Positions 1,796 to 20,214 of a DNA stretch of 64,000 nt are shown here, one piece after another. This stretch comes from an uncultured virus (IMG/VR IMGVR_UViG_3300031759_000012) (taxonomy: Duplodnaviria > Heunggongvirae > Uroviricota > Caudoviricetes), in IMG/VR virus record IMGVR_UViG_3300031759_000012; one strand, 5' to 3'. The position numbers and the translations under genes are program-made. Numbering within the stretch: position 1 is the first letter of the stretch; every line of letters begins with the position of its first letter. The notes beneath the pieces were generated by a model that worked only from the letters and a program-made list of their open reading frames with translations, had not been told where the DNA came from and ran no database searches.

Positions 1796-1797
1796 TT

Positions 1798-2304
1798 TTA
1801 TCTTCTAACTAAAGCAGTTAATGCACTTAGATCTTTTATTGCTTGTCCTGGCGACGGCAATGCTTTTTGTTCATCTTTTTTTGCAAGAGCTGCATTTTTT
1901 CGTTTAATATCTGCAAATTGGTCAGCTGTGCTATTACCAACTGGCATTTGATTATCTTCATCTTGATCGAATATTCTCAAAGTGTTCGGATCAAATCCGA
2001 GATTAACTTTGCTCCCTACACCACTAGAAGATCTTGTTTTCAAAAATTGTACTTGATATTGACCGCGCTCTTTCATTGCAGTAGATGCAAAAATTGAAAT
2101 CACATTATCAGCTGTTTGAATTTTACTAATACCACCTGAAATATGACTGTGATCATGCTCTTGTTCTTGCACTGATGAATTATGTGTTAGTATACCATTT
2201 GTATAAAATAGTTTATTTCCGGTTACATTTATATCAATGGTTTCATCAACACCGATATATTCTATAGATTCTATTTCATCTTCGATTTCAAAAAGTTGAT
2301 ACAT
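1798..2304 (-). CDS. gp41: replicative helicase gp41/DnaB, C-terminal fragment preceded by a 42-aa split-intein C-part
   Basis: IntC MYQLF...IDINVTGNKLFYTNGILTHN (2304-2179), then +1 Ser and the DnaB C-terminal motifs HISGGISKIQTADNVI and QFLKTRSS. Confidence 0.92.
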   Translation of the reverse strand: MYQLFEIEDEIESIEYIGVDETIDINVTGNKLFYTNGILTHNSSVQEQEHDHSHISGGISKIQTADNVISIFASTAMKERGQYQVQFLKTRSSSGVGSKVNLGFDPNTLRIFDQDEDNQMPVGNSTADQFADIKRKNAALAKKDEQKALPSPGQAIKDLSALTALVRR

Positions 2305-3395
2305 TTGTTTATAATCTCTTCCTTGTTATTAGTATAATCATTTTCCCATATTTCTAGCAAATCATAACCTCGTTCGGTGTAATAATCTTTTCTCAATTCA
2401 TCTTTTTTCCATATATAAGCAGATGACCAAGTTTTTTTAAATGGATGAGGGAATTCGTTCTCGGTAAACATTTGTGGGTTGGCATGAAATAAATTTCCTT
2501 GGAATTCTATTATTTTACCTTTATAAAACAAATCTGGCAAAATGCATTTTTGTTCCATAGATTCTGACCATTGTTTTGGTAAATTCCATACCATTTCATT
2601 TTCGCCATAAAAGTACAAATCATCAATAGATTCTTTTATATAATTTATACATTCTAATGACCATTTACTTACAGTGTGCTTGTTGGCAGTTTTTAATAAA
2701 AAAGATTGGTATCTTCTTGTACCTTCTTCAATACCATATTTGTCAATGAAAAAAGTTAAATTTCTAGATTTGCATAATTTTAACAATTCAATTCCAAGAA
2801 CTTCTCCATAAGTGTCTATGTAGTATTCTCTGCTTACCTTGTAAGCCTGTTTATCTTTTTTATCTTTCCATATTTGGTAACCTTTTTCATAACCATACTT
2901 ATCAATGAACCAATTTAAATTTCGTCTGGCATAAGTTCCTCGTTTTGATTTAAAACTTTTATTTCGTTTTTCCAAGTATTGGTTCCATTTTATTATACCA
3001 TCTATTTCACCATACCGTTCTTTATATATCTCAAGGGATGCGCCATTAAGTCTCAATTTTTTTAATGCCTCATCTTCTCCATATTTTTCAATGTAATATT
3101 CTTTTGTTCTTGAGCATAATTTATTTTTATTTTCCCACATAGTTGTCCCGGCTTGTTTGCCATATCTAACTATATGGGATTCTAATGAACTACTGTCATT
3201 GTTAAGCAATTTTATTTGCTCCCAATTGTCTGCTAAAATTTGAAAATCTAATCCAAGTTCATAATATTTTTTTATAAATCTGCACAACTTTTTATACGAC
3301 TTTTTATCGCAATCTATGTTTTTTAAAATATCAATTTGCTGAGTTGTTAAATTGAATTGTTTTATAAATCTGCTCTCCGCTATCATCTGTGTCAT
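2271..3395 (-). CDS. free-standing homing endonuclease, Vsr/DUF559-like, between the gp41 intein halves
   Basis: C-terminal PDLFYKGKIIEFQGNLFHANP...D..R....GY.LLEIWE nuclease motif; repeated KYGxEEG-like units. Confidence 0.8.
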   Translation of the reverse strand: MTQMIAESRFIKQFNLTTQQIDILKNIDCDKKSYKKLCRFIKKYYELGLDFQILADNWEQIKLLNNDSSSLESHIVRYGKQAGTTMWENKNKLCSRTKEYYIEKYGEDEALKKLRLNGASLEIYKERYGEIDGIIKWNQYLEKRNKSFKSKRGTYARRNLNWFIDKYGYEKGYQIWKDKKDKQAYKVSREYYIDTYGEVLGIELLKLCKSRNLTFFIDKYGIEEGTRRYQSFLLKTANKHTVSKWSLECINYIKESIDDLYFYGENEMVWNLPKQWSESMEQKCILPDLFYKGKIIEFQGNLFHANPQMFTENEFPHPFKKTWSSAYIWKKDELRKDYYTERGYDLLEIWENDYTNNKEEIINKCINFLKSKMK

Positions 3396-4710
3396 TTGAG
3401 TTCTCCTGAGTTGCAGTTGTATTTATCATAGAGAACATCATATCACTAACTTTTAATCCATCTTCTAACGATTTTAATCCATCTTTTGTTGGAAATGTAT
3501 GTTTAGCACTACATGTTACAGTTTTTCCAGATTTCGTTGTTATTTTAAATAGAGGTTGTTTTATGATTGGTGTTTTTTCTATAACTTGAACTGGACCTTC
3601 ATTTGAATCCAACCAATCGCCAACATTAACATCTTTAATTTTAATGCTATTACCGTTTGATATTACAGTTGTATCAAGAGAAAGGCAACGATTCAACTGT
3701 GCAGCAGTTTGGCCAATCATTTGTCTATCGACCAATAGTCCACGTAGTTCTTCGGTGACAAATTTGTCTTTCACGAACAAATTGCTTGGATCTATTCTCT
3801 TGTTATTTGGAAATAACAAATCTAGATAGTCAACCACTAAAACATCTGGTCGTTTTTGACGTTCAATTTCATAGGTTTTTAGATAGGCTTTGATATCATT
3901 GCATGTGCTACCTTGTGGAAGTTGTTTAACATGCAAGTCACCACTTTTACGTCCAGCTTGTTTTACTTTTATTTCTACTTCATCTATTTTTCGAAAAATT
4001 TCTTTAGTTGAAATTTCACTCAACATGCTATCCATACGCATAGCACACAACTCTTCACTAAGCTCTAGTGTGATATAAACAACATTTAAACCTTTAAGTG
4101 CAAAATTAATAGCAATATTTTGTAAAAACAGGGATTTTCCAACACCAGAACCTGCACACCAAATAGTTATCTCACCTCTATTAACACCGCCGTATAGTTT
4201 ATCATCAACTGCTTTCCATCCTGTACTAACCTGCCCATTGCTATGGCGTATACGTTCTAAACGAGCTTTTGGATCTTCAAAGTAATTTGTACCAATGTCG
4301 TTGGTCAAGCTGATTAGGATAGCTTCTCTAACACGCTTCTCTACTTCGCCATAATTACCTTTTTCAATCAAGTCAACTGCAGATAAAACTGCATTAGCCA
4401 AGGCTCTATTTTTACAAAATTCTTCAATTTCATCTAAAAATGCATCTTGATGCTGAACTGTGATGTTCTCAATTTTTTGAAAATTTAATCCAGTCTCAGC
4501 ATTTACCTGCTCTATTTTCGGCAGTACATTGTATTTTTCAGACTGCTTCAAAATATAACGTATAGCTGGCCGAAATTTATTTACAAAATAGTTTGCATCG
4601 AGAATATTTTGGCAACGAGCATAAATTTCGTCACTGCTTAGTAGCACGTCGATTAGAAGTTTTTGTTTTTCTTCGCTGTAATCTCTTGTTTCTTCTGGCT
4701 CTTTTGCCAT
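3331..4710 (-). CDS. gp41: replicative helicase gp41/DnaB, N-terminal fragment ending in a split-intein N-part
   Basis: Walker A AGSGVGKS, VVDYLDL, AAQLNR followed by intein block A CLSLDTTV (Cys at 3687) and block B TCSAKHTF. Confidence 0.93.
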   Translation of the reverse strand: MAKEPEETRDYSEEKQKLLIDVLLSSDEIYARCQNILDANYFVNKFRPAIRYILKQSEKYNVLPKIEQVNAETGLNFQKIENITVQHQDAFLDEIEEFCKNRALANAVLSAVDLIEKGNYGEVEKRVREAILISLTNDIGTNYFEDPKARLERIRHSNGQVSTGWKAVDDKLYGGVNRGEITIWCAGSGVGKSLFLQNIAINFALKGLNVVYITLELSEELCAMRMDSMLSEISTKEIFRKIDEVEIKVKQAGRKSGDLHVKQLPQGSTCNDIKAYLKTYEIERQKRPDVLVVDYLDLLFPNNKRIDPSNLFVKDKFVTEELRGLLVDRQMIGQTAAQLNRCLSLDTTVISNGNSIKIKDVNVGDWLDSNEGPVQVIEKTPIIKQPLFKITTKSGKTVTCSAKHTFPTKDGLKSLEDGLKVSDMMFSMINTTATQENSNDTDDSGEQIYKTIQFNNSAN

Positions 4711-4711
4711 T

Positions 4712-5737
4712 TTATGACCTCAACATTTGTCTTTTTACACCAATTTCTAGTGTGCTAGATGTTCTAGAAGCAATAACACTAGCTATTGTATATAATCTAC
4801 CGTACTGTTTACTAGCATCTGCACAGTCTTTTATACCTTCATTCCATTCTGGAAATGAAACTGACCATTTGTTAGCTATAGCCGCATCAATTAAATCTTG
4901 GTTCTTAAGTTGTCTATCTGGAATTACAATTTTTTCTTTATCAATACTGTTTAGCCATTGTATTTGCTGTTTGTTTAGTGTACTACCTAACGGTGATATT
5001 CCATCTATTGCTATGGCATCAAATGGTCCTTCTACTATCATTACATACTTTCTATGATAAAGATTGAGCACTCTGTTATTAAACAAATAACCAGTAGGAA
5101 TGTCACTGTTGTAATACTTTGGAATATGTTTAGGAGGTGTGCCTGCATATCTACAGGTATATCCTACGACCTTATTGTTATGATAAAACGGAATAATTAG
5201 GCGTTTATTAAGATTTGATTCTTTTATAGGCGACCAATAGTAAGTCCATCCATCTTTAATTGCTCTGCCTCTACTAGACAAATAGTCTAAACAACTTTGA
5301 AAATCTGTAGATGTATTTTGACTTTGGGACCAAAAATTTATTGGCTGCGACTGTTCGGGTAATTGGCATTCCGGAAAATGGTCAGCATGAAACTGAATAT
5401 GCTCATTTGTTTCTTCTATTTCCCCGCTTAATTTTTTACTTAATATTTCTAGTTTTGCTTGTTGTATTTTGTTTGCAGGAACACCTAGATATCTGAGCCA
5501 ATTTTCAAAATTGTGGCCTAAATCACCGCCTTTATATGCGGTTTTAAACCCGCAATTATAGCAGTTTACAATAATACCACCGTCGCCGGTTATCAATAAA
5601 TTGCCTCTGCCTCTAGTATCTTGATTATGACCCCTATGATGACAACATACTGAGTTGAAGACAATCCACCCCTTTGCATTTTGCTTGCGTTTAGGTGGCA
5701 AGTAATCAAGCACAATCTCATGAATAAGTGAGGTCAT
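4712..5737 (-). CDS. gp61: DNA primase, gp61-like
   Basis: N-terminal Zn-binding Cys motifs (VCC...CYNCG); TOPRIM VEGPFDA; position next to the helicase. Confidence 0.85.
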   Translation of the reverse strand: MTSLIHEIVLDYLPPKRKQNAKGWIVFNSVCCHHRGHNQDTRGRGNLLITGDGGIIVNCYNCGFKTAYKGGDLGHNFENWLRYLGVPANKIQQAKLEILSKKLSGEIEETNEHIQFHADHFPECQLPEQSQPINFWSQSQNTSTDFQSCLDYLSSRGRAIKDGWTYYWSPIKESNLNKRLIIPFYHNNKVVGYTCRYAGTPPKHIPKYYNSDIPTGYLFNNRVLNLYHRKYVMIVEGPFDAIAIDGISPLGSTLNKQQIQWLNSIDKEKIVIPDRQLKNQDLIDAAIANKWSVSFPEWNEGIKDCADASKQYGRLYTIASVIASRTSSTLEIGVKRQMLRS

Positions 5738-5774
5738 GTTTGTAGTTTAAACTCGTATTTTGAGTGTCACAATA

Positions 5775-6935
5775 TCAGTTTTTATACAGTATACCTGCAA
5801 AATATCCGTGATTACAGTTTATAACTGGCAATCCAGCCTGTGTCGTTGGATACGGCAAGGGTGCAGGAGGTGGAGGATAAGGACCAGGAGGTGGAGGATA
5901 GGGCGCTGGCGGATATGGTGGAGGAGGCACACATGGCGGCGGCGGCCACGAAGGTGGATTAGGGCCGCACGGCCATGGTCCTGATGGCGGATTGAAAGTT
6001 CTATTATTGGCACTTGAACATACAAAAGGTGCAGGACCGCATGAAAACTTATTGAAAAGTAGTGGATTGTTTTTACCTGCGTAATACTGATTGCATGTTG
6101 CACATTGGTAATAATAAGGGTTTTCAAAAACAAATCTTACCCAATAGTAATTTCCAGAAAAATTAAAAACCTTAATAGTAGGACTATTGTAAGGAGGGCT
6201 ATATTGAAAATAATCTGTTCCGTTGCCTATGGGTATATTAGACCAATCAAGTGATGACGGAGCATTTAGAGTAAGACTAACCTGTATCCAAAATTTTCCA
6301 GCATAGTTATTGCCGGTGTATGCTACCACTGTATGCATACCATTGCTTCGTTCTGCTTGTGCATCTCCTTGTACCGCACCAGAGGCAAAAATATATTGAT
6401 TTGTAAGGTCATCTACAGTTTCTGGAGTAAATTGGTACGCTGGTATATTAATAGCAGGAACTAGAGAGGTGCTCATACCTTCCACTAGTTCAAATGTTCC
6501 ATAGGTGCTTCTATTAAGATCAGTATACAAAAATTCTTGTCGTCCTGTTACATCAGTTAATCTTATGGTATATCTGTAGAATCCTGCTAGCCAATGCCCT
6601 ATTTCAAGATCAGTCAAAGTAAGTCTACAAGTGCCCGCAGTGTCTTGCAAAGTTTGCACAGGTTGAATTAACAAAAGTTCAGCTAATGGACTGTTGCCAT
6701 TTCCTGGAGTTGTTGTTACAGTCTCAACACGTTGGATTAATGCGTCAATTTGATATGCTGACAAATTTATAGGTTTACGGTCGTTGTTTCTCACAACAAA
6801 ATCTATTGTATTAGTAGCACCTTTATATACTTTTGTGTTATATTGTATCATAGGTCCATTTATGTTAGGTGCGTTGCCTCCAGTTGACCACAATTGTACA
6901 TATTCGCGAAATCTAAATAAAACTTGATCAACCAT
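5775..6935 (-). CDS. putative virion structural protein with a Cys/Pro-rich insertion
   Basis: beta-rich N-terminal region (KVYKGATNTIDFVVRNNDRKP); poly-Pro segment near the C-terminus; TAAATA at 6959-6964. Confidence 0.6.
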   Translation of the reverse strand: MVDQVLFRFREYVQLWSTGGNAPNINGPMIQYNTKVYKGATNTIDFVVRNNDRKPINLSAYQIDALIQRVETVTTTPGNGNSPLAELLLIQPVQTLQDTAGTCRLTLTDLEIGHWLAGFYRYTIRLTDVTGRQEFLYTDLNRSTYGTFELVEGMSTSLVPAINIPAYQFTPETVDDLTNQYIFASGAVQGDAQAERSNGMHTVVAYTGNNYAGKFWIQVSLTLNAPSSLDWSNIPIGNGTDYFQYSPPYNSPTIKVFNFSGNYYWVRFVFENPYYYQCATCNQYYAGKNNPLLFNKFSCGPAPFVCSSANNRTFNPPSGPWPCGPNPPSWPPPPCVPPPPYPPAPYPPPPGPYPPPPAPLPYPTTQAGLPVINCNHGYFAGILYKN

Positions 6936-7021
6936 GCACCTTAATCCACCTTTCCCAATATTTATGAAAATTTTACAAACCTAAAATTTGGACATAAATA
7001 AGAGCTAGAGAATTTATAGAA

Positions 7022-7393
7022 ATGACACCAGAAACACACAAATTATTACAGGAAAAATTTCCTTTCCTTACAATCATTAGCTATCTGAATACCGAGTATA
7101 TTGGTATTATGCAAAATGCCGATACGCAGTTTGTCAGCATTTACGTATTAGATCCAAGTTTTACAAATGAAAAAAAGCGAGCGTTTTTGTTATGCGGCGA
7201 AACTTGGTGGTGGGAAAGCAACAGAAGTATTCCTATAAATCTGTTTCTTGGAGAAAGATTTAAGGTCTTCAAACCTAGTCTGAAGACCTTTGCTAGAAAA
7301 GAGGTTACTATTGTAGAAGGCCCAACAATTAATCTAATGGACCTTATGAATAAGAAATTTAAAAGAAGAACTATTCAGCTGGTCAAAAATTAA
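7022..7393 (+). CDS. conserved phage hypothetical protein
   Basis: 123-aa ORF with a WWWESNRSIPINLFL motif; TAAATA at 6995-7000. Confidence 0.7.
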   Translation: MTPETHKLLQEKFPFLTIISYLNTEYIGIMQNADTQFVSIYVLDPSFTNEKKRAFLLCGETWWWESNRSIPINLFLGERFKVFKPSLKTFARKEVTIVEGPTINLMDLMNKKFKRRTIQLVKN

Positions 7394-7869
7394 GACCCGC
7401 TTATACTAGACACTTGAACTGTAACCGTTACACTTCCGTCTTTGTTTATCGTTGGCTTTACTGGTTGTTTCTTCTTCTCTTCTTGATATTCAGCTTCTTT
7501 AGCATCGTCCCATTTTTGCCACTGTTCAACATTTGACCAAGCGAAAATTGCAGCGTCGTCTTTGTTTTCAAATGTAGCATATCCGATTACAGTATCAGGC
7601 GTATCCTTCTTACGTTCAAGAATAGCCCTAATCGAAAATGTTCCTTCAAGGCTGTACAGAGTTTTTAGCATTTGTTCCCAATCCTCTGTTTGAATATTAG
7701 GGCTACGAAAAACAAATCCTGATGGCAACGAATCTACTAAATTTGCAAGCGGATTGTTTTCCAAATTTTCCGCAAGACACTCATGATATTTTTTATTCGC
7801 GGATTGCAAAAATACATTTGTTCCTAGAGAATTGGTGTTAGCCACTAAGTTTAAATCAATGGTTGGCAT
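7390..7869 (-). CDS. hypothetical protein
   Basis: 159-aa ORF, AAGGA RBS, upstream TTGACA-17-TACTAT. Confidence 0.6.
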   Translation of the reverse strand: MPTIDLNLVANTNSLGTNVFLQSANKKYHECLAENLENNPLANLVDSLPSGFVFRSPNIQTEDWEQMLKTLYSLEGTFSIRAILERKKDTPDTVIGYATFENKDDAAIFAWSNVEQWQKWDDAKEAEYQEEKKKQPVKPTINKDGSVTVTVQVSSISGS

Positions 7870-7904
7870 TACTCGTTCCTTTCTATACTATAATAGTAGC
7901 ATAC

Positions 7905-8513
7905 CTATGAAACACTGTCAACGTCTTGCGACAATTGTTCTACTATTAGATTGGCATGAACTTTCACAAGCATAGCATATGAAATAGCATGTGCATGTTT
8001 GAAACTATACCCTTCCGAATTGTCAGTCCAAATTTCATCTAAAACGCTATCGAAGCCATTCTTTATACACTTGTCTATTAGATGTTTTTTACCAGGTCGA
8101 ATAAGGGCAAGTATTATAGCAACATGTTCAACATTAGATGGCTTCAGTCTGGAAACCAAATCTGCATGGTTGCCTAAATGAATTAATTTAGAAACAAATT
8201 CTTTGTAGGTAAACAGCGTCCATTCAACTGGTTTTTCCATAAGCTCTAGTAAGTGTTGTTCGTTTTTAATCCCTTCATAAACACTTACATTTAAAAGGTC
8301 GAGTTTATACCAACCTCGATCAGCAGCAATATCGTATGGTAATGATGCAAGTTTGGTAATAGGGTCTATAGGAACTGTATGAAAATATACACCTGTATTG
8401 TGTTTGATTAGTGAGTTATTACGTATGATTGATGCAGGAGTATGATTTAATACAGAAAGAGCTAAATTTCTATCAGCAAAATCAATGTCAACATCTCCGA
8501 TAATTAATGACAT
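7905..8513 (-). CDS. miniature DNA polymerase III alpha (DnaE)-like protein
   Basis: family-C motifs in order: GDVDIDF, KHNTGVYF, YKLDLLNV, LALIRPG, YSFKHAHAISYA; only about 202 aa. Confidence 0.8.
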   Translation of the reverse strand: MSLIIGDVDIDFADRNLALSVLNHTPASIIRNNSLIKHNTGVYFHTVPIDPITKLASLPYDIAADRGWYKLDLLNVSVYEGIKNEQHLLELMEKPVEWTLFTYKEFVSKLIHLGNHADLVSRLKPSNVEHVAIILALIRPGKKHLIDKCIKNGFDSVLDEIWTDNSEGYSFKHAHAISYAMLVKVHANLIVEQLSQDVDSVS

Positions 8514-8752
8514 ATAATATATCCACTCCATGTGAGTTGAAATTCAACAGATTGGTTTTCTTCAATGTCCAGATAAAGTAATAGATAAAAATCGCGCTCG
8601 TGTATAGAATATTGTATATCTCTTTCTGTTAACCAAAGAAAAAGAGGTGAGTCTGGATTGAGAACAGGTATTGAGAAAGTATTAGATTTATTATCTAACT
8701 GATATGCTAAGCAACTTTGCTTATTGTCCCAGTTGATTTTATAAAGTTTCAT
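8504..8752 (-). CDS. hypothetical protein
   Basis: 82-aa ORF coupled (ATGA) to the upstream gene. Confidence 0.55.
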   Translation of the reverse strand: MKLYKINWDNKQSCLAYQLDNKSNTFSIPVLNPDSPLFLWLTERDIQYSIHERDFYLLLYLDIEENQSVEFQLTWSGYIICH

Positions 8753-9048
8753 TTTTCGTAACTGACCTTGTTATCAAGCTCGCCTGTTATCTCTCTAATA
8801 CGCCGTTCTTGCATAAATTGTTTACTTTTCAGAGAATGTAATTCAGTCTCTAAACGCTGTATATGAGATTGTAATCTTTTTAACGTAGATTCCATGTTTA
8901 TCACAACAGATGGATCAATAACCGCAACTTTTTTCCCTTGCATTTCAATTTCTGTTATGGCGCCGCGGACTCCTAGAAAGTTAACCGGTAAAGGGCTTTC
9001 GTTGCTAGCAGTATTTTCATCTGTTGTATTATACATGTCGTCAGTCAT
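8749..9048 (-). CDS. hypothetical coiled-coil protein
   Basis: 99-aa ORF in an operon, heptad-like C-terminus. Confidence 0.6.
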   Translation of the reverse strand: MTDDMYNTTDENTASNESPLPVNFLGVRGAITEIEMQGKKVAVIDPSVVINMESTLKRLQSHIQRLETELHSLKSKQFMQERRIREITGELDNKVSYEK

Positions 9049-12059: not shown

Positions 12060-12120
12060 TGAATTTCTCCTGGCAAATGATGCCAGGTATTTACAATTTG
12101 AAGGTCAATATTTTTTTTAA

Positions 12121-12960
12121 TCAGTAAGTTATTTTTTTCATATTAGATGGATATTGAACATCTGCATAAAATTTTTTACGTTTTAATAAATGCCTGTTGG
12201 AAAATTTACATCTACTGGCTATATCATAAATCTCAACTGCGTCCTTGTCATCTGCTTTTCTTAGTCCTCTGCCAATGCTTTGTATAACTCTTACAAAACT
12301 TTTGCCTGGTTCTAACAACACTAGATTGAAAATTCTATTAATCGATATGCCTGTAGAGGTAGTACCATACGTGGCTATCATAATAGCATTATCAGCAAAA
12401 TTTATTTCGTCATATAATACTTTACGTTTAGTACTCTTCATTTGGCCGCTTATGAAGGTTGAATTTGGTATCAATTCTGAAAGAAGTTCACCTGTTTCAA
12501 TTCTATCTATCAACACCAACGTATTTCCACTTTTAGCAATTTCTAAAATTCGTTTTGCCAACCAACCTATACGATGTTTGTTTGTGGTTAAAAACTTTAG
12601 TTCTTCTTGGTAATTTTTGTAAATTATATCTTCTTGTGTTTGTTCTATATTCACGTGACACTGTGCTAGATGCCCTTGCTCTTGCAATTCTCTAGCAGTA
12701 AGTCTGCCTATCATTGGCCCTATGGCACTGAATAAACTTGCTTGATTATATTCCTCTTCCGGAATTGTGCCTGTGAGGCCCCAACGTATTGGAATATTTG
12801 AAAACGTGTTAGTTAGCAGCCCGTGCAATACATTCATGTTTTTCACACTATGACAGTTAGACACTACGGCCCGTTCTACTATATAATTGTGATCATCCTG
12901 TACATGTAGGTTGTAAACTTGATCAGGTTTACTGATTTCTCGGCGACTTAGCAGTTTCAT
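12121..12960 (-). CDS. uvsW: UvsW-like SF2 helicase, C-terminal fragment preceded by a 35-aa split-intein C-part
   Basis: IntC MKLLSRRE...VYNLHVQDDHNYIVERAVVSN (12960-12856), +1 Cys; helicase motifs GLTGT and QSIGRGLR. Confidence 0.9.
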   Translation of the reverse strand: MKLLSRREISKPDQVYNLHVQDDHNYIVERAVVSNCHSVKNMNVLHGLLTNTFSNIPIRWGLTGTIPEEEYNQASLFSAIGPMIGRLTARELQEQGHLAQCHVNIEQTQEDIIYKNYQEELKFLTTNKHRIGWLAKRILEIAKSGNTLVLIDRIETGELLSELIPNSTFISGQMKSTKRKVLYDEINFADNAIMIATYGTTSTGISINRIFNLVLLEPGKSFVRVIQSIGRGLRKADDKDAVEIYDIASRCKFSNRHLLKRKKFYADVQYPSNMKKITY

Positions 12961-13840
12961 ATAGGTATCCTATCTTTCTTGCAGTTTCAGAATCAAATCT
13001 AGCTAGATCTGGCAATGGTACATTAGACGTTAGCCATTGTTGATCAATTAGCAATATTTTATAATCGTGTTGTTTTGCCCAGTCTTTAAGGACAGTATAT
13101 TTTGCTTCCCATTTAGTGCCATTAAACAAGTTGTAAGGTTTGACCTCAACTACAAGTTTATCAACATGATCAATAAAATCAACGATGTACACATAATTCT
13201 TACCATCTAACATGTACATTAAACGAAGTTGTTCGTATTCAGATTGTTGATTATGATAATGGTATAATGCTTCCCAGCTAGATCTGTATTTTTTACCATC
13301 AAATGTTGAATTCCATCGACCAAATTGATTACTAGATTTTGGTGTAAATTTTCCAGTTAATATTAAATTTGTTATTGTTTTGGACAGATGGCACTTCTCC
13401 TCGTCAGAGTGTAGTCGTCCATACATTCCGTTATTTTTGCCAGAATTCTGTTGTCCTATTTTATGTTTGGTCTCCGTTGAATGTTTTTTACCTGTAAATG
13501 TACCAGGTTTTCCTTTACTCCAGGGTATGCCGGTGTTTAAATTTTTCCGTATAGTCTCACTGTTCATATTCCATGATTTTTTTCCTCGATTTATTGCCAA
13601 CTGATGTTTTATATCATATTCTGTTATTTCACCACAAAACAATTTATCAAAGTTTTCAATCCATATACTAGTACGTGTGTTGGACAATCTAAGCCTAAAT
13701 ACATTTTTATTTTTTCCCGTTATTATTACCCCATTCGACAACTTAATTAATGATCTATTATAGTCATCTATTCTTAGATTTTGATTATAATTTTCTAAAA
13801 TACTATTGAATCGCGTTATTATATTTTCATACGTTGCCAT
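12929..13840 (-). CDS. free-standing endonuclease (NUMOD3 repeats + PD-(D/E)XK, TnsA/gp4-like) between the UvsW intein halves
   Basis: NUMOD3-like GKKHSTETKHKIG and GRLHSDEEK; YRSSWE...YIVDF...VVEVKP. Confidence 0.78.
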   Translation of the reverse strand: MATYENIITRFNSILENYNQNLRIDDYNRSLIKLSNGVIITGKNKNVFRLRLSNTRTSIWIENFDKLFCGEITEYDIKHQLAINRGKKSWNMNSETIRKNLNTGIPWSKGKPGTFTGKKHSTETKHKIGQQNSGKNNGMYGRLHSDEEKCHLSKTITNLILTGKFTPKSSNQFGRWNSTFDGKKYRSSWEALYHYHNQQSEYEQLRLMYMLDGKNYVYIVDFIDHVDKLVVEVKPYNLFNGTKWEAKYTVLKDWAKQHDYKILLIDQQWLTSNVPLPDLARFDSETARKIGYLYETAKSPRNQ

Positions 13841-13876
13841 AAAATACCTATATGTCTTTGACTGTATGTATTTATG

Positions 13877-14887
13877 TTAATAGTTGATAATGTCGTGATC
13901 AACAGTTATTTCATCAGCTCGGCACCACCCGATGGTGGTTAAAAACTTATGATTACCAGTAACCTGTATTTTTGAATGATTATCAAATTCTAATTCATAC
14001 ATCTTTTCATTTGTTGAATCGGTTAGATTGCAATGTTGTTTTATTACAGTGTCAACTTTGAATTGTTGTAACTTCTCAGAATAGTTGATAACCTGTTGCC
14101 CAGACGATATATCCTTTATTGGAATATATCCGGTAGGTGTTAAAACACGCATATCACCATTAAAACATTCATCGCATACCACTGCCACTAGATTATCTAA
14201 AAACACAGCCAGTTGGTCATCATCTAAAGCATCTTTATTTTTCTTATCTAAAACATTTAAACTCTGCCACGTGCAAATAGTATGGGTGCGATTATATTCT
14301 TTTCTATCGCCAAATAGTACGCCGACATCTAGTCCAATATTTCTGTAATCTTCTTCTGTTTGCAGAACTAAATTTTTATTAGGAACGATAACGATTGTAC
14401 GACCATATTTTTGGGCAATCATAGATAGACTTGCTGTAATAATTGTTTTACCGGCACTAGTTGGTGCAACCGAAATTCCCTGTAAGTTATTGACGCACTC
14501 ATTAATGGCTTGAACTTGGTAATCTCTTAGAATAATAGGTTGCCCTGCAAATCTGTGTCCTGCAGGCCACACAATATGGCTTAAAAAATTTTCATCTATG
14601 TTATCAAATTCAAAAACGTGCTTAGTTCTTTTGTCAGTTATGGTAAATTCATAGCCTTCGTCAAGTAGAACAGGTAAAATTTTATCTAGCAAATTAAGGT
14701 ATGTTCTACCACCTAAAGTACAAAAACTTGTGGTCCCGTCCCATCGTCCTAGTTTAAATGCTGGACTATAGCGAGCATGTGGTAGAAAATATTTTACAGC
14801 GTTTACACATAACCGGCGTGTTTTGAGATCAAGTCCTTCTAGTTTTACTGTAGTTTCATCTTCAATTATTAATTCAACTTGTTTCAT
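13877..14887 (-). CDS. uvsW: UvsW-like SF2 helicase, N-terminal fragment ending in a 96-aa split-intein N-part
   Basis: LRDYQ, APTSAGKT, VVCDE followed by CFNGDMRVLTP (Cys at 14167) and block B VTGNHKF. Confidence 0.9.
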   Translation of the reverse strand: MKQVELIIEDETTVKLEGLDLKTRRLCVNAVKYFLPHARYSPAFKLGRWDGTTSFCTLGGRTYLNLLDKILPVLLDEGYEFTITDKRTKHVFEFDNIDENFLSHIVWPAGHRFAGQPIILRDYQVQAINECVNNLQGISVAPTSAGKTIITASLSMIAQKYGRTIVIVPNKNLVLQTEEDYRNIGLDVGVLFGDRKEYNRTHTICTWQSLNVLDKKNKDALDDDQLAVFLDNLVAVVCDECFNGDMRVLTPTGYIPIKDISSGQQVINYSEKLQQFKVDTVIKQHCNLTDSTNEKMYELEFDNHSKIQVTGNHKFLTTIGWCRADEITVDHDIINY

Positions 14888-14889
14888 TG

Positions 14890-15357
14890 TTAGCCACCTT
14901 TTGTATCAAGATTAGCATCTTCCATGCCAACTACTCGTAGTCGAACAATGTTTGATATTTGCCAATTTTTAATTTCTAGTCCCTTCATAAGGGCTAGGTA
15001 TTTGTTTCTTACTAGGCCTACTTCATTAATAATCATATTCATGCTGACAATATCGTCCTCGCCATCAATGTATTTTTCTATACTGCGATCAGTTAAATCA
15101 CGCTGGTATCTTTCTAGATATTTTCTATAATGATCGCTTCGCATTTTGTCATATTTGATATTAAGATGTTTTAGGATAGCTTCTATTTCCTGAAGCTGCC
15201 CAAACCTGTGCGAGGTGATACCCGATAATTCTTGCGAATTTTTTTCCAGTTTACCAGATATTTTAGGTTCATTTTTAGCTGAATCAAGTTCGCTATTATA
15301 GTAATCAATTGCCGAAGGAATTTCAGCTAGATTTTCTACTATACGATTATACCACAT
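14890..15357 (-). CDS. uvsY: UvsY-like recombination mediator
   Basis: 155-aa helical protein, YIDGE motif, located between uvsX and uvsW. Confidence 0.7.
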   Translation of the reverse strand: MWYNRIVENLAEIPSAIDYYNSELDSAKNEPKISGKLEKNSQELSGITSHRFGQLQEIEAILKHLNIKYDKMRSDHYRKYLERYQRDLTDRSIEKYIDGEDDIVSMNMIINEVGLVRNKYLALMKGLEIKNWQISNIVRLRVVGMEDANLDTKGG

Positions 15358-15372
15358 TAAAACACATATCTA

Positions 15373-15840
15373 TTATAAAGTTTTCCACAATTTCCAATCT
15401 AAGGCTTTGAGTAACAGCAATGTTTTTGCTTGCAGTTGAAGTTGCAGCCACACCACTTCATTTGGATCTTTTCTAGCAACTGCATGCTCTACTTCGACTA
15501 TTAATTTACGTAAATCATGATCAGTTAACACAAATGCCTGAGATAAAGCTTCTGCATATGATGTGTGCACAGGTGTTTCTGGTACATCTTCATTTGGTTC
15601 ATTTTCAGGTTTTGGTAATTTTATCGTTTTACGCTTAATTAATGATTCTAGTGTTTCTTGTTTGGTTTCAAATTTTGGAACATCATTTTCGATGTGAATA
15701 TTTTGAATCAACATAGAATCGTCAGCGTCTTGTTGATTTAGCACAGGATCAACGGATAGTTTATCGTGTTCTTCAACAACGGAGTTGTCTGTAGACAACT
15801 CCGTTGTAGTGCTTGTGTTTTCGTTTATAGCTGTGCGCAT
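15373..15840 (-). CDS. hypothetical protein
   Basis: ORF 15373-15918; start at 15840 avoids overlap with the upstream gene. Confidence 0.5.
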   Translation of the reverse strand: MRTAINENTSTTTELSTDNSVVEEHDKLSVDPVLNQQDADDSMLIQNIHIENDVPKFETKQETLESLIKRKTIKLPKPENEPNEDVPETPVHTSYAEALSQAFVLTDHDLRKLIVEVEHAVARKDPNEVVWLQLQLQAKTLLLLKALDWKLWKTL

Positions 15841-15856
15841 TAAACGATCTTTAAAT

Positions 15857-16096
15857 TTATTCTTCTTCGTATTCAGGTTCATCTTCATATCCTTCATCGA
15901 GGCTACTTGCCAGTTCATCTAGTGCGTAGTCCAAATGCTCATCTTCTTCCCTTAATTCTTCTAGGTCATCAAGATCTATATCTGCATCTATAAAGATTTT
16001 AAGAAACCGAACAGCAGCATCATTTTTCTTACCAGGTGGTACAAAATCTGAAAATAGCTCCCAAGTTTCCAATAGTACGTGTTCAGAAATTTCCAT
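15857..16096 (-). CDS. small acidic hypothetical protein
   Basis: 79-aa D/E-rich ORF with AGGAG RBS, directly after uvsX part 3. Confidence 0.65.
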   Translation of the reverse strand: MEISEHVLLETWELFSDFVPPGKKNDAAVRFLKIFIDADIDLDDLEELREEDEHLDYALDELASSLDEGYEDEPEYEEE

Positions 16097-16097
16097 G

Positions 16098-16625
16098 TTA
16101 TTCTCCTATATCAGTTACCGTATCATTGTCTAGACTGTCTTGTGTTTGTAATAGTTTGCTTTCATCCCACTCATTCATGATTTGATCTAGAAGTGACGTA
16201 GGTATAGCTGAACGAAAATATTTGTGTTCTTTACCTGAGTTGTCAACATATTTTAGTTTTGTACTATCTTTTACTAAGACACCTTTCTTCTCAAAAAGGT
16301 CAATGAGACCACTATAAGGATCCATACCTGTATCCCAAGGGATTTTTATTTCAACGTTTTCAAACGGCTTGTTATATCTAGTCTTCATAATTTTGCATGC
16401 AGCACGAATACCACGAACATCTGTAACCTTTTTACCATCTTCGTCTTCTTTAAGCTTGCGCTTTTGCATAGCTACAACAATTGATGATGCATAAATGAAA
16501 CCCGAGTTATGGCTGACTACGCCGCTATCTAATAGATAATGATGCGCATCGGGCACTGATATATCATATACTTTTTTGATACCTATATTTTTTTTACTTT
16601 TAATTTTGATTTTTTGTAGCGACAT
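16098..16625 (-). CDS. uvsX: UvsX/RecA fragment 3, preceded by a 40-aa split-intein C-part
   Basis: IntC MSLQKIKIKSKK...VYDISVPDAHHYLLDSGVVSHN (16625-16506), +1 Ser, then GFIYASSIVV...KTRYNKPF. Confidence 0.92.
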   Translation of the reverse strand: MSLQKIKIKSKKNIGIKKVYDISVPDAHHYLLDSGVVSHNSGFIYASSIVVAMQKRKLKEDEDGKKVTDVRGIRAACKIMKTRYNKPFENVEIKIPWDTGMDPYSGLIDLFEKKGVLVKDSTKLKYVDNSGKEHKYFRSAIPTSLLDQIMNEWDESKLLQTQDSLDNDTVTDIGE

Positions 16626-17595
16626 TTTTGATATACTCCTTTACCATTTTAATTGATTCTAGCATGTTATCTGATTCCCAAACTACTATAGTATGATACC
16701 CTCTGGTATTCAACATACACTGTTGTTTGTTTTTATCTCTGTCCCATATTTCTTGTGCTGTTAAATTTGTTTGTTTATGTAAGTATTCAGAATTATATTT
16801 TTTTGGATTACAATGCCAATAGTCTCCATAAAATTCAACACAAAGATTAAATTCTGGGACAACAAAATCGAAAAAATAATAACAATTAAAATTTGAATCT
16901 AAAATTCCATATTCACCATTTTCATTGCAGGCACTATAAATTTTGCAGCCAGCAAATATATTGCTTAATTCTAGAAAAAAGTTATTTGCCTTTTCTGAAT
17001 TATGTCTATTTTTAAATTTTTTAGACCATAACTTTCGTCCTGCTACTTCTCCATGATTGTTAATATACCCATCTAGTGTATAATTTATTTTTCTAGATTC
17101 ACATAGAGCATTATATTTCAAAGTTCCTTCAGTTTCTCCAAATTTTGATATAAAATATTGCAAAGACATATTATCAGAGCGTTGCATAATGTATGATTTA
17201 GCCTCATCCTCACTCATTCCATGTTCCATCCAATATTCTTTGCAAAATGGAGATCTACGTTTTCTTTCAACCGTATCATATTTTTCTAATCTCAGTTGAC
17301 TATTAGCATGTTGCACTATAGAAACTTGCTTGGTAGCATTTTCCATAGTGTATCCCTTCTTTATCCAATAATCAACGCTACGCGGACTTCGAGATTTCTG
17401 AAGTTGAGATATTTTTTCTTGCGATTCCTGCAATGACAATCCTTTTTTTAGCCAATATTCAGCCGAAGTTTGACTGATTTTTTTAGGCTGTTTTAACTTT
17501 CTGTTGTTTTTGCACAATGATGAACATACATATTGTATAGTCATTATACTATCTTTTTTTCTTATCATTTTTCCGCATTCAACACATGGTTTCAT
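16600..17595 (-). CDS. free-standing homing endonuclease, Vsr/DUF559-like, between the halves of UvsX intein 2
   Basis: YFFDF...VEFYGDYWHCNP...D..K...GY....VWE; YWxKKG repeats; GGAGG RBS before ATG 17595. Confidence 0.82.
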   Translation of the reverse strand: MKPCVECGKMIRKKDSIMTIQYVCSSLCKNNRKLKQPKKISQTSAEYWLKKGLSLQESQEKISQLQKSRSPRSVDYWIKKGYTMENATKQVSIVQHANSQLRLEKYDTVERKRRSPFCKEYWMEHGMSEDEAKSYIMQRSDNMSLQYFISKFGETEGTLKYNALCESRKINYTLDGYINNHGEVAGRKLWSKKFKNRHNSEKANNFFLELSNIFAGCKIYSACNENGEYGILDSNFNCYYFFDFVVPEFNLCVEFYGDYWHCNPKKYNSEYLHKQTNLTAQEIWDRDKNKQQCMLNTRGYHTIVVWESDNMLESIKMVKEYIKNVATKNQN

Positions 17596-17600
17596 GTGGT

Positions 17601-17652
17601 TTGCCCTCCAGTAATTTGTGTACGGTATATTTAGCAAATTACTGGAGGGCAA
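17601..17652 (-). promoter_or_regulatory. RBS-sequestering hairpin with a late promoter in the loop
   Basis: perfect 18-bp inverted repeat TTGCCCTCCAGTAATTTG / CAAATTACTGGAGGGCAA; loop holds TAAATA (17628-17633, minus); 3' arm holds the GGAGG of the nuclease gene. Confidence 0.8.
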
Positions 17653-17662
17653 GGATTATTAG

Positions 17663-18781
17663 TTAAACAAGTTGTAGGATTTCATCATTTACGTACAATT
17701 CCGCTACAGTTTTCCATACTAATTGATTATTAGACTGTTGCGTTGAAAACTTATGTTCGTTAGTGGCCTGAATTATTTCACCAGTTTCTAATTCAATTTC
17801 GATTACTTCTTTGTCATCAAATGTAAAAGTTTCTGAAACATCAATATCACCATCTAATGTCACAACAACATCCCCTTGCCGAATATCTTCAATATTCTTT
17901 GATGAACCGTCTGCCATCCAGATTTTGTGTCCGGCTGTTAAACAACCGCCTGAAATTTTGTCATCTGGATCAAACATGTCTTGTGATTGATAACTATGAT
18001 TAGTCACAACCATGCCTACATCATACTCGCCGAACATGTTCACGCAGTTGCGTACTAGTGCAGCCAGCGCCCGTGGTTTACGTCCCATGTCTCCTTTGAG
18101 GTCGCCTGCTTCAAATTGGTTTACATCGGTAGGTGTTAGCAACATGCCAAGACTATCAAGTACAAAAAGAGTCTTCTTGCGTTCTTCAGGAGCCAGGTCT
18201 TTGTACCATGCCATATAACCGGTAATAGTTTTAGCAACATCGTCAATCATAGCTAGGTTGACTTTGAAAAGCTTATCTGGATCAGTATCAACGCCAAGAG
18301 GTTTTAACCACTTTTCATCTAATGCGTTTTCTGTATCAATTAAGACAACAAATATACCTTGTTGCTGTGCATTCCGAACCATATTACCAGAACAGATATA
18401 AGATTTACCAGAATTATGACTAGAAAATCCATCTCCCCAGTAACGGTGGTTATCATGTAGGACTTCGAAATCAAAACATTCTTGATCATCTATGTCTGTA
18501 GTTGCAATAACAGTTTGCGGTCCGCTTGTAGTTAATAAAACATCGCCTACATTCACTTCTCCAGCTAATACCCAATCTTCTGAATCTAATTGTAGAAGAT
18601 GGGTATATGCACATGATGTAGTGTGTGATTCCGTAATTATTGAAACCATTTGTAATTTGCCCTTATCAAACCATTGACCTATCGGTTGATAACCATCGGG
18701 TGTATCTATTTCAATATGGTAATTATTACTAGCGACCATGTTTTTTAATAGTTCTATAGTAACTTCCTGCTCAATAAACAT
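17663..18781 (-). CDS. uvsX: UvsX/RecA fragment 2: IntC(1, 123 aa) - RecA core (156 aa) - IntN(2, 93 aa)
   Basis: ...HRYWGDGFSSHN|SGKSYIC; RecA motifs IDTENALD, VLDSLGML, GDMGRKP, VTNHSY; DKISGG|CLTAGHKIWMADG (Cys at 17944), block B QATNEHKF. Confidence 0.93.
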   Translation of the reverse strand: MFIEQEVTIELLKNMVASNNYHIEIDTPDGYQPIGQWFDKGKLQMVSIITESHTTSCAYTHLLQLDSEDWVLAGEVNVGDVLLTTSGPQTVIATTDIDDQECFDFEVLHDNHRYWGDGFSSHNSGKSYICSGNMVRNAQQQGIFVVLIDTENALDEKWLKPLGVDTDPDKLFKVNLAMIDDVAKTITGYMAWYKDLAPEERKKTLFVLDSLGMLLTPTDVNQFEAGDLKGDMGRKPRALAALVRNCVNMFGEYDVGMVVTNHSYQSQDMFDPDDKISGGCLTAGHKIWMADGSSKNIEDIRQGDVVVTLDGDIDVSETFTFDDKEVIEIELETGEIIQATNEHKFSTQQSNNQLVWKTVAELYVNDEILQLV

Positions 18782-19913
18782 AATTTTTTCCTATACTTTC
18801 TAACAAGGTTGTAACAACTACATCAGGTTGTTGTCTATATTCATTTTCCCAAATTATGAGTAATTTAGACACGTGAGATGTATCTTCTTTAATTTTTGTT
18901 GCTCTAGTTGCGTCTGTTGTCCATTTTTCTTTCGAACAGTAACCATGTGTAAAAAAATCTGCTGAAAAAAACAATGGATTTCTATGCCAATAATCTCCGT
19001 AGAATTCAATGACTGTTTTTGATTCAAGATGATAGAAATCTACTCTAAATCCGCCTATCAATGCTTCGTGTGTAGTTGGCTTAAAATAACATGTTCCTTT
19101 GAGTTTTTCTCGAAGAGTTAAAAAAAGCTTATGCGATATATTTGAAAATGGAGACCTATTGATTTGTCGCATTCGTTCGCACATATCGCTGTATGCTGTA
19201 ATCGCATCATCCTCTGAATATCCCCTAAGTATATATCCATCAATTGATAATGATTTTTTACGATTTATAAGAGAAATTTCTTCAGTACTTTTAGATTGTA
19301 ATGTATCTAGCCACGATTTAATTCTATTCTCAAATAAAATCTTCCCGCGTTCTTTCCCGTATTTTTCAGTATAAAATTTTAATCCATTAGTGGTTTGAAC
19401 TCTACGCACTTGCTCGGCTGCATCAGATTCAGTCAATCCCTTACGTAACCAGTATTCAATCGATCTATGTGTATAAATGTTCTTGCCACGTGTTTTTTCA
19501 ACTGATTTTTTGTTCCTCTCAAGTTGTATCTCTTTAACTTTGTCATTAGCCGCTGCTATATCAAATCCTAAATCTGTCCAATATTTTACAGTATTTTTAA
19601 AATGTTTGCTACGCCTGGTGTCCTGTTCGTGCTTAATTTTTTCAAAATTTTTCTTGCCATACCGTAAAAACGCAGAAACATTTGATCGATCAGTTGGTAT
19701 TTTCATCAATCTACGTAACCTTCCAACATAATTTATTAAATCATATTTTATAAAAGTTGCTATAGTTATATGCCACGTTTCTAATGACTTGCAAGTTCGG
19801 TCTTTAAATACTGCATTTAATCTAGTTATCTGTAAATCAGTTAATGCAATATTTCCTAATATTGCAATAACTGATTTCCGTTTCATAAATCTTTTAGCCT
19901 GTTTGTTCAACAT
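18771..19913 (-). CDS. free-standing homing endonuclease, Vsr/DUF559-like, between the halves of UvsX intein 1
   Basis: FRVDFY...VIEFYGDYWHRNP...D..R...LLIIWE; YWxxxG repeats. Confidence 0.82.
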   Translation of the reverse strand: MLNKQAKRFMKRKSVIAILGNIALTDLQITRLNAVFKDRTCKSLETWHITIATFIKYDLINYVGRLRRLMKIPTDRSNVSAFLRYGKKNFEKIKHEQDTRRSKHFKNTVKYWTDLGFDIAAANDKVKEIQLERNKKSVEKTRGKNIYTHRSIEYWLRKGLTESDAAEQVRRVQTTNGLKFYTEKYGKERGKILFENRIKSWLDTLQSKSTEEISLINRKKSLSIDGYILRGYSEDDAITAYSDMCERMRQINRSPFSNISHKLFLTLREKLKGTCYFKPTTHEALIGGFRVDFYHLESKTVIEFYGDYWHRNPLFFSADFFTHGYCSKEKWTTDATRATKIKEDTSHVSKLLIIWENEYRQQPDVVVTTLLESIGKNYVY

Positions 19914-19977
19914 ATTATGTTTCCTAGTATTATTTTTACATAGTATTTATTATTATGCTGGACAAACAGGTAAAATA

Positions 19978-20214
19978 TTATTTCAATTTATATTGTATAC
20001 GAACCTTGGCTGATGCAGGCAAACAACCACTCTGACCAGCAAACATCGTAACCTTGCCTAATGGGATTCCATTCCTAAAGTTACCAGATATTGCATAATT
20101 TAGTGCATAATTACCCGAATCTACCCAGTGTTTTGGATCATTAAATCCAACAGAAATACCTGGAATACTTTTTGTCAGATCTTTTCTAAATTTTGAGATG
20201 TCAAAAGGACGCAT
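19978..20214 (-). CDS. uvsX: UvsX/RecA fragment 1, ending in a 15-aa atypical split-intein N-part
   Basis: MRPFDISKFRK...GIPLGKVTMFAGQSG|CLPASAKVRIQYKLK-stop; GGAG RBS before ATG 20214. Confidence 0.9.
   Translation of the reverse strand: MRPFDISKFRKDLTKSIPGISVGFNDPKHWVDSGNYALNYAISGNFRNGIPLGKVTMFAGQSGCLPASAKVRIQYKLK

Follow-up and report, generated by a model that had tools for sequence, protein, structure and literature searches.

Four putative fractured genes carrying split inteins and free-standing homing endonuclease genes in the replication block of a large uncultured myophage

The fractured gene, in which a host gene is broken into colinear open reading frames (ORFs) that each carry one part of a split intein and are separated by an endonuclease gene, was described by Dassa, London, Stoddard, Schueler-Furman and Pietrokovski (Dassa et al. 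2009, PMC2677866). In the account given there, a late-promoter-like element, TATAAATA, is located upstream of the endonuclease gene, inside a hairpin covering the ribosome site, and travels with the endonuclease gene; alleles devoid of the endonuclease are also recorded. Among the split inteins compared by Pinto et al. (2020, PMC7090010), gp41-8 ranks with the fastest, and 15 of 16 dissimilar split inteins are reported to be mutually orthogonal. VidaL is presented as a cysteine-dependent intein that is atypically split in nature and has an N-half of 16 residues (PMC13014065). For Pseudomonas phage MIJ3, the part of its paper that was available reports only a split PolB intein. The DNA analysed here, a stretch of 64,000 nucleotides from an uncultured virus of the Caudoviricetes (IMG/VR record IMGVR_UViG_3300031759_000012; hereafter the window), carries four such split inteins in the genes encoding gp41, UvsW and UvsX, the last of which is broken twice.

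The explanation that accounts best for these genes, and which is considered very probable, is that they constitute four independent fractured genes, with inteins in catalytic motifs and a free-standing homing endonuclease gene in each, whose cognate halves trans-splice, whose cassettes spread by homing and whose orthogonality follows from independent origin. The inteins would have inserted into catalytic motifs of essential enzymes, namely the ..QLNR motif of gp41, the DExH box of UvsW, and the Walker-A and ..ISGG loops of UvsX. An endonuclease gene would then have invaded the coding sequence of each intein, with the result that the reading frame of the host gene is divided into two ORFs (three in the case of UvsX). 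After translation the cognate halves are expected to pair and trans-splice, yielding gp41 of approximately 467 aa, UvsW of approximately 484 aa and UvsX of approximately 354–368 aa; experimental demonstration of such splicing exists for relatives of just two of the four inteins. The pattern of sequence identity suggests that the endonucleases cut intein-free alleles of co-infecting relatives and that repair copies the cassette in. The four pairs, being unrelated in sequence, probably do not cross-react.

The window is part of a large myophage, in which Pfam and PHROG searches recognize a T4-like replication and recombination module together with T4-like structural genes (terminase, tail sheath, tail tube and gp23 capsid protein). 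Its nearest named relatives are the jumbo phages Salicola SCTP-2, Pseudomonas PA5oct and MIJ3, Agrobacterium Atu_ph07 and Sinorhizobium Phosso, with protein identities of approximately 45–75 %; a megablast search of the replication block against the phage collection returned zero nucleotide matches. The original prediction, made from the sequence alone, was that seven polypeptides carrying eight intein halves must assemble into three enzymes, with primase, gp32 and terminase left uninterrupted. Both statements were confirmed: gp41 is made of two pieces, UvsW of two and UvsX of three, the seven ORFs are all encoded by the minus strand, and Pfam/PHROG scans of the window ORFs found the other three genes whole. 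Pfam detected no Hint or intein signal on the remaining ORFs of the window. The prediction did not mention the endonuclease gene, which is located between the halves at all four loci. Co-expression of the seven pieces would be predicted from their colinearity on one strand.

Each of the four loci has the anatomy of a fractured gene. In blastp comparisons with PA5oct, Atu_ph07, Phosso and SCTP-2, the extein pieces rejoin colinearly and end to end along uninterrupted homologues (UvsW and UvsX of PA5oct, gp41 of Atu_ph07 and Phosso). When the extein queries are placed on intein-free relatives they lie directly next to each other (gap 0 nt) at three junctions; at the UvsW junction the gap is 0 or -3 nt. 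Cys1 and the block-B His are present in all four inteins, as is an Asn at the end, with Ser or Cys at position +1, and the PHROG families 16259, 9690, 18112 and 8337 span split pieces from end to end, the intein portion included.

The gp41 gene is interrupted after ..AAQLNR, where the N-half of the intein begins with CLSLDT; this half matches the gp41-1 intein (6qaz, E 9e-9). The C-terminal piece aligns from its residue 43 with gp41 of Atu_ph07 and Phosso. The locus comprises the following features.

4710..3331, minus strand: gp41-N, 459 aa (341-aa extein plus intein N-half); DnaB_C, phrog_19 (E 7.7e-58)
3334..3687, minus strand: intein N-half, with an 88-aa core (3424-3687) and a 30-aa tail overlapping the endonuclease gene start; 6qaz match
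3419..3426, minus strand: ATAAATAC motif approximately 30 nt upstream of the endonuclease start (motif scan)
2271..3395, minus strand: free-standing homing endonuclease gene, 374 aa; phrog_22677 (E 6.8e-22), weak Pfam MTES_1575
2304..1798, minus strand: gp41-C, 168 aa (42-aa C-half plus 126-aa C-extein); phrog_19
2179..2304, minus strand: intein C-half, ending in His-Asn (..THN) and followed by Ser (boundary ..THN/SSV)

A related IMG/VR contig of 120 kb (L149) has a gap of 2895 nt between the gp41 extein parts, compared with 1509 nt, and contains an extra insert beside the endonuclease gene.

In UvsW, the N-terminal extein ends with ..VVCDE, inside the DExH box, and aligns with residues 3–242 of PA5oct UvsW; the C-terminal piece, whose boundary reads ..VSN/CHSV, aligns with residues 238–483 of the same protein.

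14887..13877, minus strand: UvsW-N, 336 aa (240-aa extein plus 96-aa N-half, 13880-14167); ResIII/DEAD, Intein_splicing (E 1.7e-7), phrog_16259 (E 1.2e-50)
13868..13875, minus strand: ATAAATAC motif approximately 30 nt upstream of the endonuclease start (motif scan)
13840..12929, minus strand: free-standing endonuclease gene, 303 aa; NUMOD3 (E 1.8e-7), phrog_22417 and phrog_15427 'endonuclease'
12960..12121, minus strand: UvsW-C, 279 aa (35-aa C-half, 12856-12960, plus 244-aa C-extein); Helicase_C, phrog_9690 (E 2.8e-56)

Beside its NUMOD3 motif, the UvsW endonuclease gives a weak signal for a TnsA-like N-domain. Elsewhere in the window, amid tail and head genes, a 149-aa protein (29632-30081, minus strand) gives a strong match to the TnsA-like endonuclease N-domain family (PF08722, E 1.5e-22) and also matches phrog_218 'head closure' and phrog_15427, the PHROG that it has in common with the endonuclease of the UvsW cassette.

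UvsX is assembled from three pieces and two inteins. Site a cuts the Walker-A loop (..FAGQSG and SGKS..), and site b the loop ..ISGG and SGFIY... The first piece, listed as 92 aa from a GTG at 20256, is probably 78 aa long from the ATG at 20214, the likely true start; from its residue 16 it is 68 % identical to the 81-aa N-piece of PA5oct, and its boundary reads ..FAGQSG/CLPASA... The middle piece carries the C-half of intein a at its N-end, terminating in ..SHN before an extein that begins with SGKS, and the N-half of intein b at its C-end. Intein b is canonically split, with an N-half of 93 residues and a C-half of 40, and the last piece (boundary ..VSHN/SGFIY) aligns with the UvsX of PA5oct and SCTP-2.

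20256/20214..19978, minus strand: UvsX-N, extein plus 15-aa N-half of intein a (19981-20025); phrog_97
19943..19950, minus strand: ATAAATAC motif approximately 30 nt upstream of the UvsX-a endonuclease start (motif scan)
19913..18771, minus strand: free-standing homing endonuclease gene in intein a, 380 aa; phrog_22677 (E 7.1e-13), homologous to PA5oct gp275
18781..17663, minus strand: UvsX-M, 372 aa (123-aa C-half of intein a, 18413-18781, plus 156-aa extein plus 93-aa N-half of intein b, 17666-17944); RecA, phrog_97, Hint
17652..16600, minus strand: free-standing homing endonuclease gene in intein b, 350 aa from a TTG; phrog_22677 (E 3.6e-23), phrog_3339 'homing endonuclease'; the true start may lie downstream of the TTG
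16625..16098, minus strand: UvsX-C, 175 aa (40-aa C-half of intein b, 16506-16625, plus 135-aa C-extein); phrog_18112, phrog_97

The arrangement of UvsX-M, with two halves of different inteins on one polypeptide, might be expected to invite self-reaction. Most of a Hint fold would be covered by either half, the C-half of intein a with its 123 residues as well as the N-half of intein b with its 93; the two therefore overlap in structure instead of complementing each other, and cyclization or mis-joining should be prevented.

The survey of related genomes for intein-free and contiguous alleles, proposed together with the original prediction, was carried out on 335 fetched loci, which were grouped into 229 sequence clusters. 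Empty sites, contiguous mini-inteins, split inteins with an endonuclease gene and split inteins without it were all found at three of the sites. Since the queries were a mixture of intein-targeted and extein-targeted sequences, the following counts are not prevalences.

UvsX site a, 109 clusters: 91 empty, 7 contiguous mini-intein, 4 split with endonuclease, 2 split with endonuclease remnant, 5 split without endonuclease
UvsX site b, 116 clusters: 108 empty, 1 contiguous mini-intein, 5 split with endonuclease, 1 split with endonuclease remnant, 1 split without endonuclease
UvsW, 86 clusters: 52 empty, 2 contiguous mini-intein, 24 split with endonuclease, 2 split with endonuclease remnant, 5 split without endonuclease
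gp41, 55 clusters: 51 empty, 0 contiguous mini-intein, 4 split with endonuclease, 0 split with endonuclease remnant, 0 split without endonuclease

In one further UvsW cluster of near-identical sequences, both full and deleted endonuclease genes are present. The near-identical loci L089-L091 and L093/L094 are distinguished by a deletion of approximately 620 nt (equivalent to window 13199-13817), in which the first two thirds of the UvsW endonuclease gene are lost, so that the endonuclease is polymorphic for presence and absence.

Among the best 80 relatives retrieved with UvsX-M, an intein is present at site a in four and at site b in one. Both inteins are contiguous in one protein (P0065), as in SCTP-2; in two others (P0020 and P0034) the site-a intein is contiguous and site b is split, and in a further one (P0025) site a is empty and site b is split. 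The contiguous alleles of P0020 and SCTP-2 continue without a break across the position at which UvsX-a is split. The three-piece UvsX recurs in metagenomes: 17 of the best 120 protein clusters for UvsX-M have its length (369–387 aa) with at least 98 % coverage, two of which were read, and in one locus (L009) the three pieces persist after both endonuclease genes have gone, separated by spacers of 65–67 nt. Relatives with UvsX exteins 81–89 % identical to those of the window carry none, one or two of the scored UvsX and UvsW elements in varying combinations (gp41 was left unscored in this comparison).

Comparison of the cassettes with their flanks indicates recent homing for two of the four, UvsW and UvsX-b. 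In five loci (L092-L095 and L089) the UvsW cassette, comprising the N-half, the endonuclease gene if present and the C-half, is 99–100 % identical to that of the window at the nucleotide level, whereas the UvsW exteins are 71–74 % identical. The UvsX-b cassette is 91–98 % identical, as against 71–86 % for its flanks, and shows a dS of 0.09–0.30 where the flanking exteins are saturated. Since these two cassettes are far more alike than their flanks and relatives hold different subsets of the elements, the elements appear to have arrived separately, some of them recently.

The endonucleases of gp41, UvsX-a and UvsX-b (374, 380 and 350 aa) fall into phrog_22677/3339, while the UvsW enzyme is assigned to NUMOD3 and phrog_15427. 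An alignment revealed a C-terminal pattern, D..(I/V)EF(Y/Q)G..(W/F)H..P...W..D, common to the first three and PA5oct gp275. By eye, these three fit the Vsr-like motif as Dassa et al. outline it, with an Asp, then a Glu placed seven residues ahead of a His that is itself preceded by two aromatic residues, and finally a further Asp; they are termed Vsr-like in motif only, and motifs and PHROGs are the basis on which the family is proposed. In all three proteins, the N-terminal two thirds consist of repeated modules of 20–35 residues, ..(Y/F)(W/Y)(I/L)xK(G/Y)(G/L/Y).., with no Pfam match, which may form a modular DNA-binding array. Another free-standing homing endonuclease gene (62354-63193, plus strand; phrog_3339, E 4.4e-88; phrog_559 'HNH endonuclease') adjoins the gp23 major capsid gene (63283-64000, minus strand), which runs off the window end and shows no intein signal in its part within the window.

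The cassettes also have expression signals in common. In all four, the downstream piece has its own ATG within the 3' end of the endonuclease ORF (overlaps of 34, 32, 11 and 26 nt), preceded by a purine-rich stretch. The motif ATAAATAC occurs five times in the window, compared with 6.3 occurrences expected by chance, and three of the five lie approximately 30 nt upstream of endonuclease starts, so that ATAAATA(C) precedes the endonuclease gene in three of the four cassettes. Among relatives, all 23 UvsW clusters with a split intein and endonuclease have ATAAATA approximately 35 nt ahead of the endonuclease gene, even as endonuclease identity falls to 34–46 %; for the other sites, the cassettes examined gave 4 of 4 (gp41), 2 of 4 (UvsX-a) and 0 of 5 (UvsX-b). 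The element resembles the T4-type late-promoter element described by Dassa et al., and the endonuclease genes may possess a late-type promoter of their own. Scans of the window for sigma-70-like promoters and for terminators gave chance-level numbers (88 against 84.6 expected, and 9 against 11, respectively). A hairpin covering the endonuclease start is not convincingly conserved: the motif pairs with the start region in just 5 of 14 distinct UvsW upstream sequences, at approximately -3 kcal/mol in four and -10.9 kcal/mol in one.

Several observations weigh against the reading of four spliced and homing fractured genes. The Pfam Intein_splicing/Hint matches reach 31.6–31.8 bits against a curated cut-off of 35.8, as is to be expected for half domains. 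The gp41 and UvsX-a cassettes are no more similar among relatives than their flanks. The three Vsr-like endonucleases have no match to the Pfam Vsr family at E values up to 5, just a weak one to MTES_1575, and sequence and profile searches of solved structures in the Protein Data Bank (PDB) found no match to the endonucleases. The UvsW intein ends in Ser-Asn instead of His-Asn, and this absence of the penultimate His may be taken to suggest that the halves merely hold the pieces together, in complexes active without formation of a peptide bond; there are indeed known phage enzymes made of fragments that associate by other means (e.g. PMC3045599). Such non-covalent assembly is nevertheless considered highly improbable, given that all four inteins and their relatives keep Cys1, the terminal Asn and the +1 nucleophile, that relatives of two of them (VidaL and gp41-8) are reported to splice, and that the P-loop and the DExH box are themselves split, so a folded intein left in place could hardly be compatible with activity.

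An intact second copy of gp41, UvsW or UvsX may also be present outside the 64-kb window, to which the search was confined, in which case the pieces could be non-functional remnants of decayed genes in a phage relying on those copies or on host enzymes. Such decay is hardly credible in view of the intact catalytic motifs and splice residues, the repeated occurrence of the same split layouts across many lineages, including two cultured phages (PA5oct and PM2), and dN/dS values of 0.05–0.23 across exteins, intein halves and endonucleases (0.06–0.23 for intein halves where dS is unsaturated, 0.13–0.19 for endonucleases). The split pieces and the endonucleases are under purifying selection. Split alleles, moreover, outlast the loss of the endonuclease, an argument for the halves being required and hence for splicing.

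The remaining points against four fractured genes in one genome concern the assembly. Five independent IMG/VR contigs tile the window at 99.99–100 % identity: G003 covers positions 1-11144, G004 1-12959, G002 5634 to at least 20000 (100 % identity over 5634-20000), G005 14758 to at least 20000 and G001 14088-64000. Apart from the window's own assembly, G002 is the sole contig crossing the UvsW cassette; G004 and G001 end at or inside the cassette (12959 and 14088), and G005 starts approximately 590 nt outside it. Since the cassette (1.3 kb) is identical across diverged, co-assembled phages, it acts as an inter-strain repeat that breaks assemblies, and it separates the gp41 locus on one side from the UvsX loci on the other. 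The window could therefore be a chimera joined through a common UvsW cassette, the four split inteins not residing in one phage. This scenario is improbable, however: G002 crosses the cassette at 100 % identity and overlaps G003 and G004 leftward by 5.5–7.3 kb, and in every locus spanning the cassette the flanks are of the same type, either both of the window type or both approximately 72 % identical to it. UvsW and both UvsX inteins, in any case, are located together on G002. The concern that the region is a mis-assembled composite of several genomes, voiced with the original prediction, is thus largely settled against a composite by the contig tiling.

The original prediction had further proposed that the four pairs are mutually orthogonal because chimeric products were selected against, and that trans-splicing acts as a post-translational switch for recombination-dependent replication. 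Mutual orthogonality itself is plausible. The four inteins are 15–35 % identical in pairwise comparison (the closest being UvsW and UvsX-b, with 27 % for N-halves and 35 % for C-halves), and UvsX-a is split near its N-end, after approximately 15 residues, while the other three are split canonically. The net charges of the halves also vary (N-half and C-half, respectively: gp41 +1 and -8; UvsX-a +4 and -17; UvsX-b -13 and +4; UvsW -4 and 0), although the closest pair, UvsW and UvsX-b, has one charge polarity in common. For four unrelated inteins, the result of Pinto et al. makes orthogonality the expected default, and it is likely a by-product of separately acquired elements.

Selection as its cause is unsupported. 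An adapted set might be suspected from the placement of all four inteins in enzymes of one pathway encoded on one strand, from the harm that a cross-reaction between the halves of UvsX-M would do, so that cross-reactive incoming cassettes would be filtered out (such filtering is possible), and from the conserved late-promoter-like motif upstream of the endonuclease gene and downstream piece, which could shift fragment ratios during infection. Nevertheless, the low sequence identity of the four inteins predicts orthogonality without selection, close relatives hold different subsets of the elements, and the UvsW and UvsX-b cassettes were recently acquired by lateral transfer. A required switch is hard to reconcile with the intein-free alleles of most relatives (91/109, 108/116, 52/86 and 51/55 clusters at UvsX-a, UvsX-b, UvsW and gp41). 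No evidence of selection towards orthogonality or of a regulatory switch was found among the relatives compared, and the chance that the four pairs form an adaptive set of this kind is considered small.

A third suggestion was that fragments may be swapped between co-infecting phages. Identical UvsW halves and near-identical UvsX-b halves are attached to exteins that have diverged by about a quarter at the nucleotide level; co-infection should therefore lead to trans-splicing across phages, the precondition for fragment swapping being in place. If so, the resulting hybrid enzymes would be a protein-level counterpart of recombination, and UvsX-M would represent a natural three-fragment ligation by two inteins of different split topology. 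The joint proposal that co-infection generates hybrid helicases and recombinases, that UvsX-M mediates a one-pot three-fragment ligation and that the phage offers a ready four-member orthogonal set is advanced tentatively, as possible and on balance somewhat doubtful.

Should the fractured-gene explanation be correct, relatives of the widely used protein-engineering tools gp41-8 and VidaL are seen in their natural setting, in one large phage genome, where they must work in the same cytoplasm as two uncharacterized split inteins (UvsW and UvsX-b). All four may lend themselves to multiplexed protein ligation, with UvsX as a three-piece assembly found in nature. An unusually complete series can be drawn up from the relatives, from the empty site through the contiguous mini-intein, invasion by an endonuclease and the split gene to loss of the endonuclease; together with the sharp identity boundaries left by current homing, it supports the gene-breaking model proposed in 2009. 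A practical warning is that identical mobile cassettes in related phages can break or mis-join metagenome assemblies. These observations may be of use to intein engineers and students of homing; to the specialist they offer a rich example of a known selfish element and no great surprise. Within the literature searched, from which subscription journals were mostly absent, no paper was found on UvsX or UvsW split inteins, a three-piece UvsX or several split inteins in one phage. Within that scope, the new elements are the four fractured loci in one genome, UvsW and UvsX as fractured-gene hosts, and a recurrent natural three-piece UvsX with one atypically and one canonically split intein.

The uninterrupted genes of the T4-like module are the following.

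5737..4712, minus strand: primase, whole
15357..14890, minus strand: UvsY, whole
21332..20301, minus strand: gp32, whole
27098..25503, minus strand: large terminase, whole, 531 aa

Other genes of the window include a 386-aa virion-structural-like protein (5775-6935, minus strand; phrog_14467) with a long proline-rich C-terminal tract, in which PPPP runs occur with Y, A, G and C, and a very long tail sheath protein of 1361 aa (39766-43851, minus strand), whose match to the sheath family is confined to the last approximately 700 residues. Two regions (34517-38640 and 50244-60317) contain auxiliary genes unusual for a phage, including those for a fatty-acid desaturase, a Rieske ring-hydroxylating oxygenase, an Asp/Asn beta-hydroxylase and a tRNA nucleotidyltransferase, as well as a sugar-nucleotide/glycosyltransferase cluster with a transketolase in two ORFs (56575-57213 and 57144-57692).

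With respect to known systems, the window differs from the fractured genes of Dassa et al. in several ways, as far as the available text of that paper (PMC2677866) shows. Those were single loci on short metagenomic assemblies, whereas the window contains four loci in one genome; their hosts were gp41, IMPDH, DnaE, NrdA, NrdJ, ligase and terminase, to which UvsW and UvsX are now added; one gene of the window, UvsX, is broken twice; and their endonucleases were GIY-YIG or Vsr-like, whereas the UvsW enzyme is of the NUMOD3 type with a TnsA-like domain. The gp41 intein of the window appears to be a diverged allele of gp41-8, the likeness resting on the intein parts printed in the supplement (Fig. 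S1), which gives no extein flanks. By hand count, 53 of 85 residues of the N-half and approximately three quarters of the last 34 residues of the C-half are identical, and both inteins have gp41 as host, primase upstream and Ser at +1.

The N-half of UvsX-a comprises 15 aa and that of VidaL 16 aa, and both inteins are cysteine-dependent, following the published description of VidaL (PMC13014065). The C-half of UvsX-a is homologous to VidaL (PDB 6vgv/6vgw; phmmer E 5.9e-39 over residues 2–126 of UvsX-M). Counted on the printed alignment, 64 of 125 residues (approximately 51 %) are identical. The source of VidaL is presumably itself a UvsX gene. Unlike VidaL as described, UvsX-a can be viewed within its genome, where an endonuclease gene separates the halves and a second intein follows further downstream in UvsX. 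Salicola phage SCTP-2 has both UvsX sites occupied by contiguous mini-inteins (429 and 402 nt) within one 656-aa protein (gene 204), and PA5oct has a split with a short N-half at site a, the endonuclease gene gp275 lying between the UvsX pieces, while site b is empty.

Relatives of the UvsW and UvsX-b inteins, approximately 50 % identical, occur in the cultured T4-like Proteus phage PM2, where UvsW is split at DE/C and UvsX at ..TGG/C, each with an endonuclease gene between the halves. The UvsX endonuclease of PM2 looks like a different type, with a YYIG string in its translation, and the P-loop of PM2 UvsX, unlike that of the window, has no intein. Similar matches for these two inteins, known as matches alone, were obtained in Salmonella phages S16, STP4-a and SEA1. 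Downstream of the split UvsW, the PM2 region (L340) contains a second annotated homing endonuclease and then a 73-aa ORF with the annotation of a UvsW-related helicase piece, which may represent a further, intein-less break. Finally, the engineered ligation of Pinto et al. (PMC7090010), in the portion of the paper available, employs several split inteins side by side and a middle fragment with a C-half at its N-terminus and an N-half at its C-terminus, as in UvsX-M; unlike that engineered system, the arrangement in the window is natural and is found in an essential recombinase, with its orthogonality predicted.

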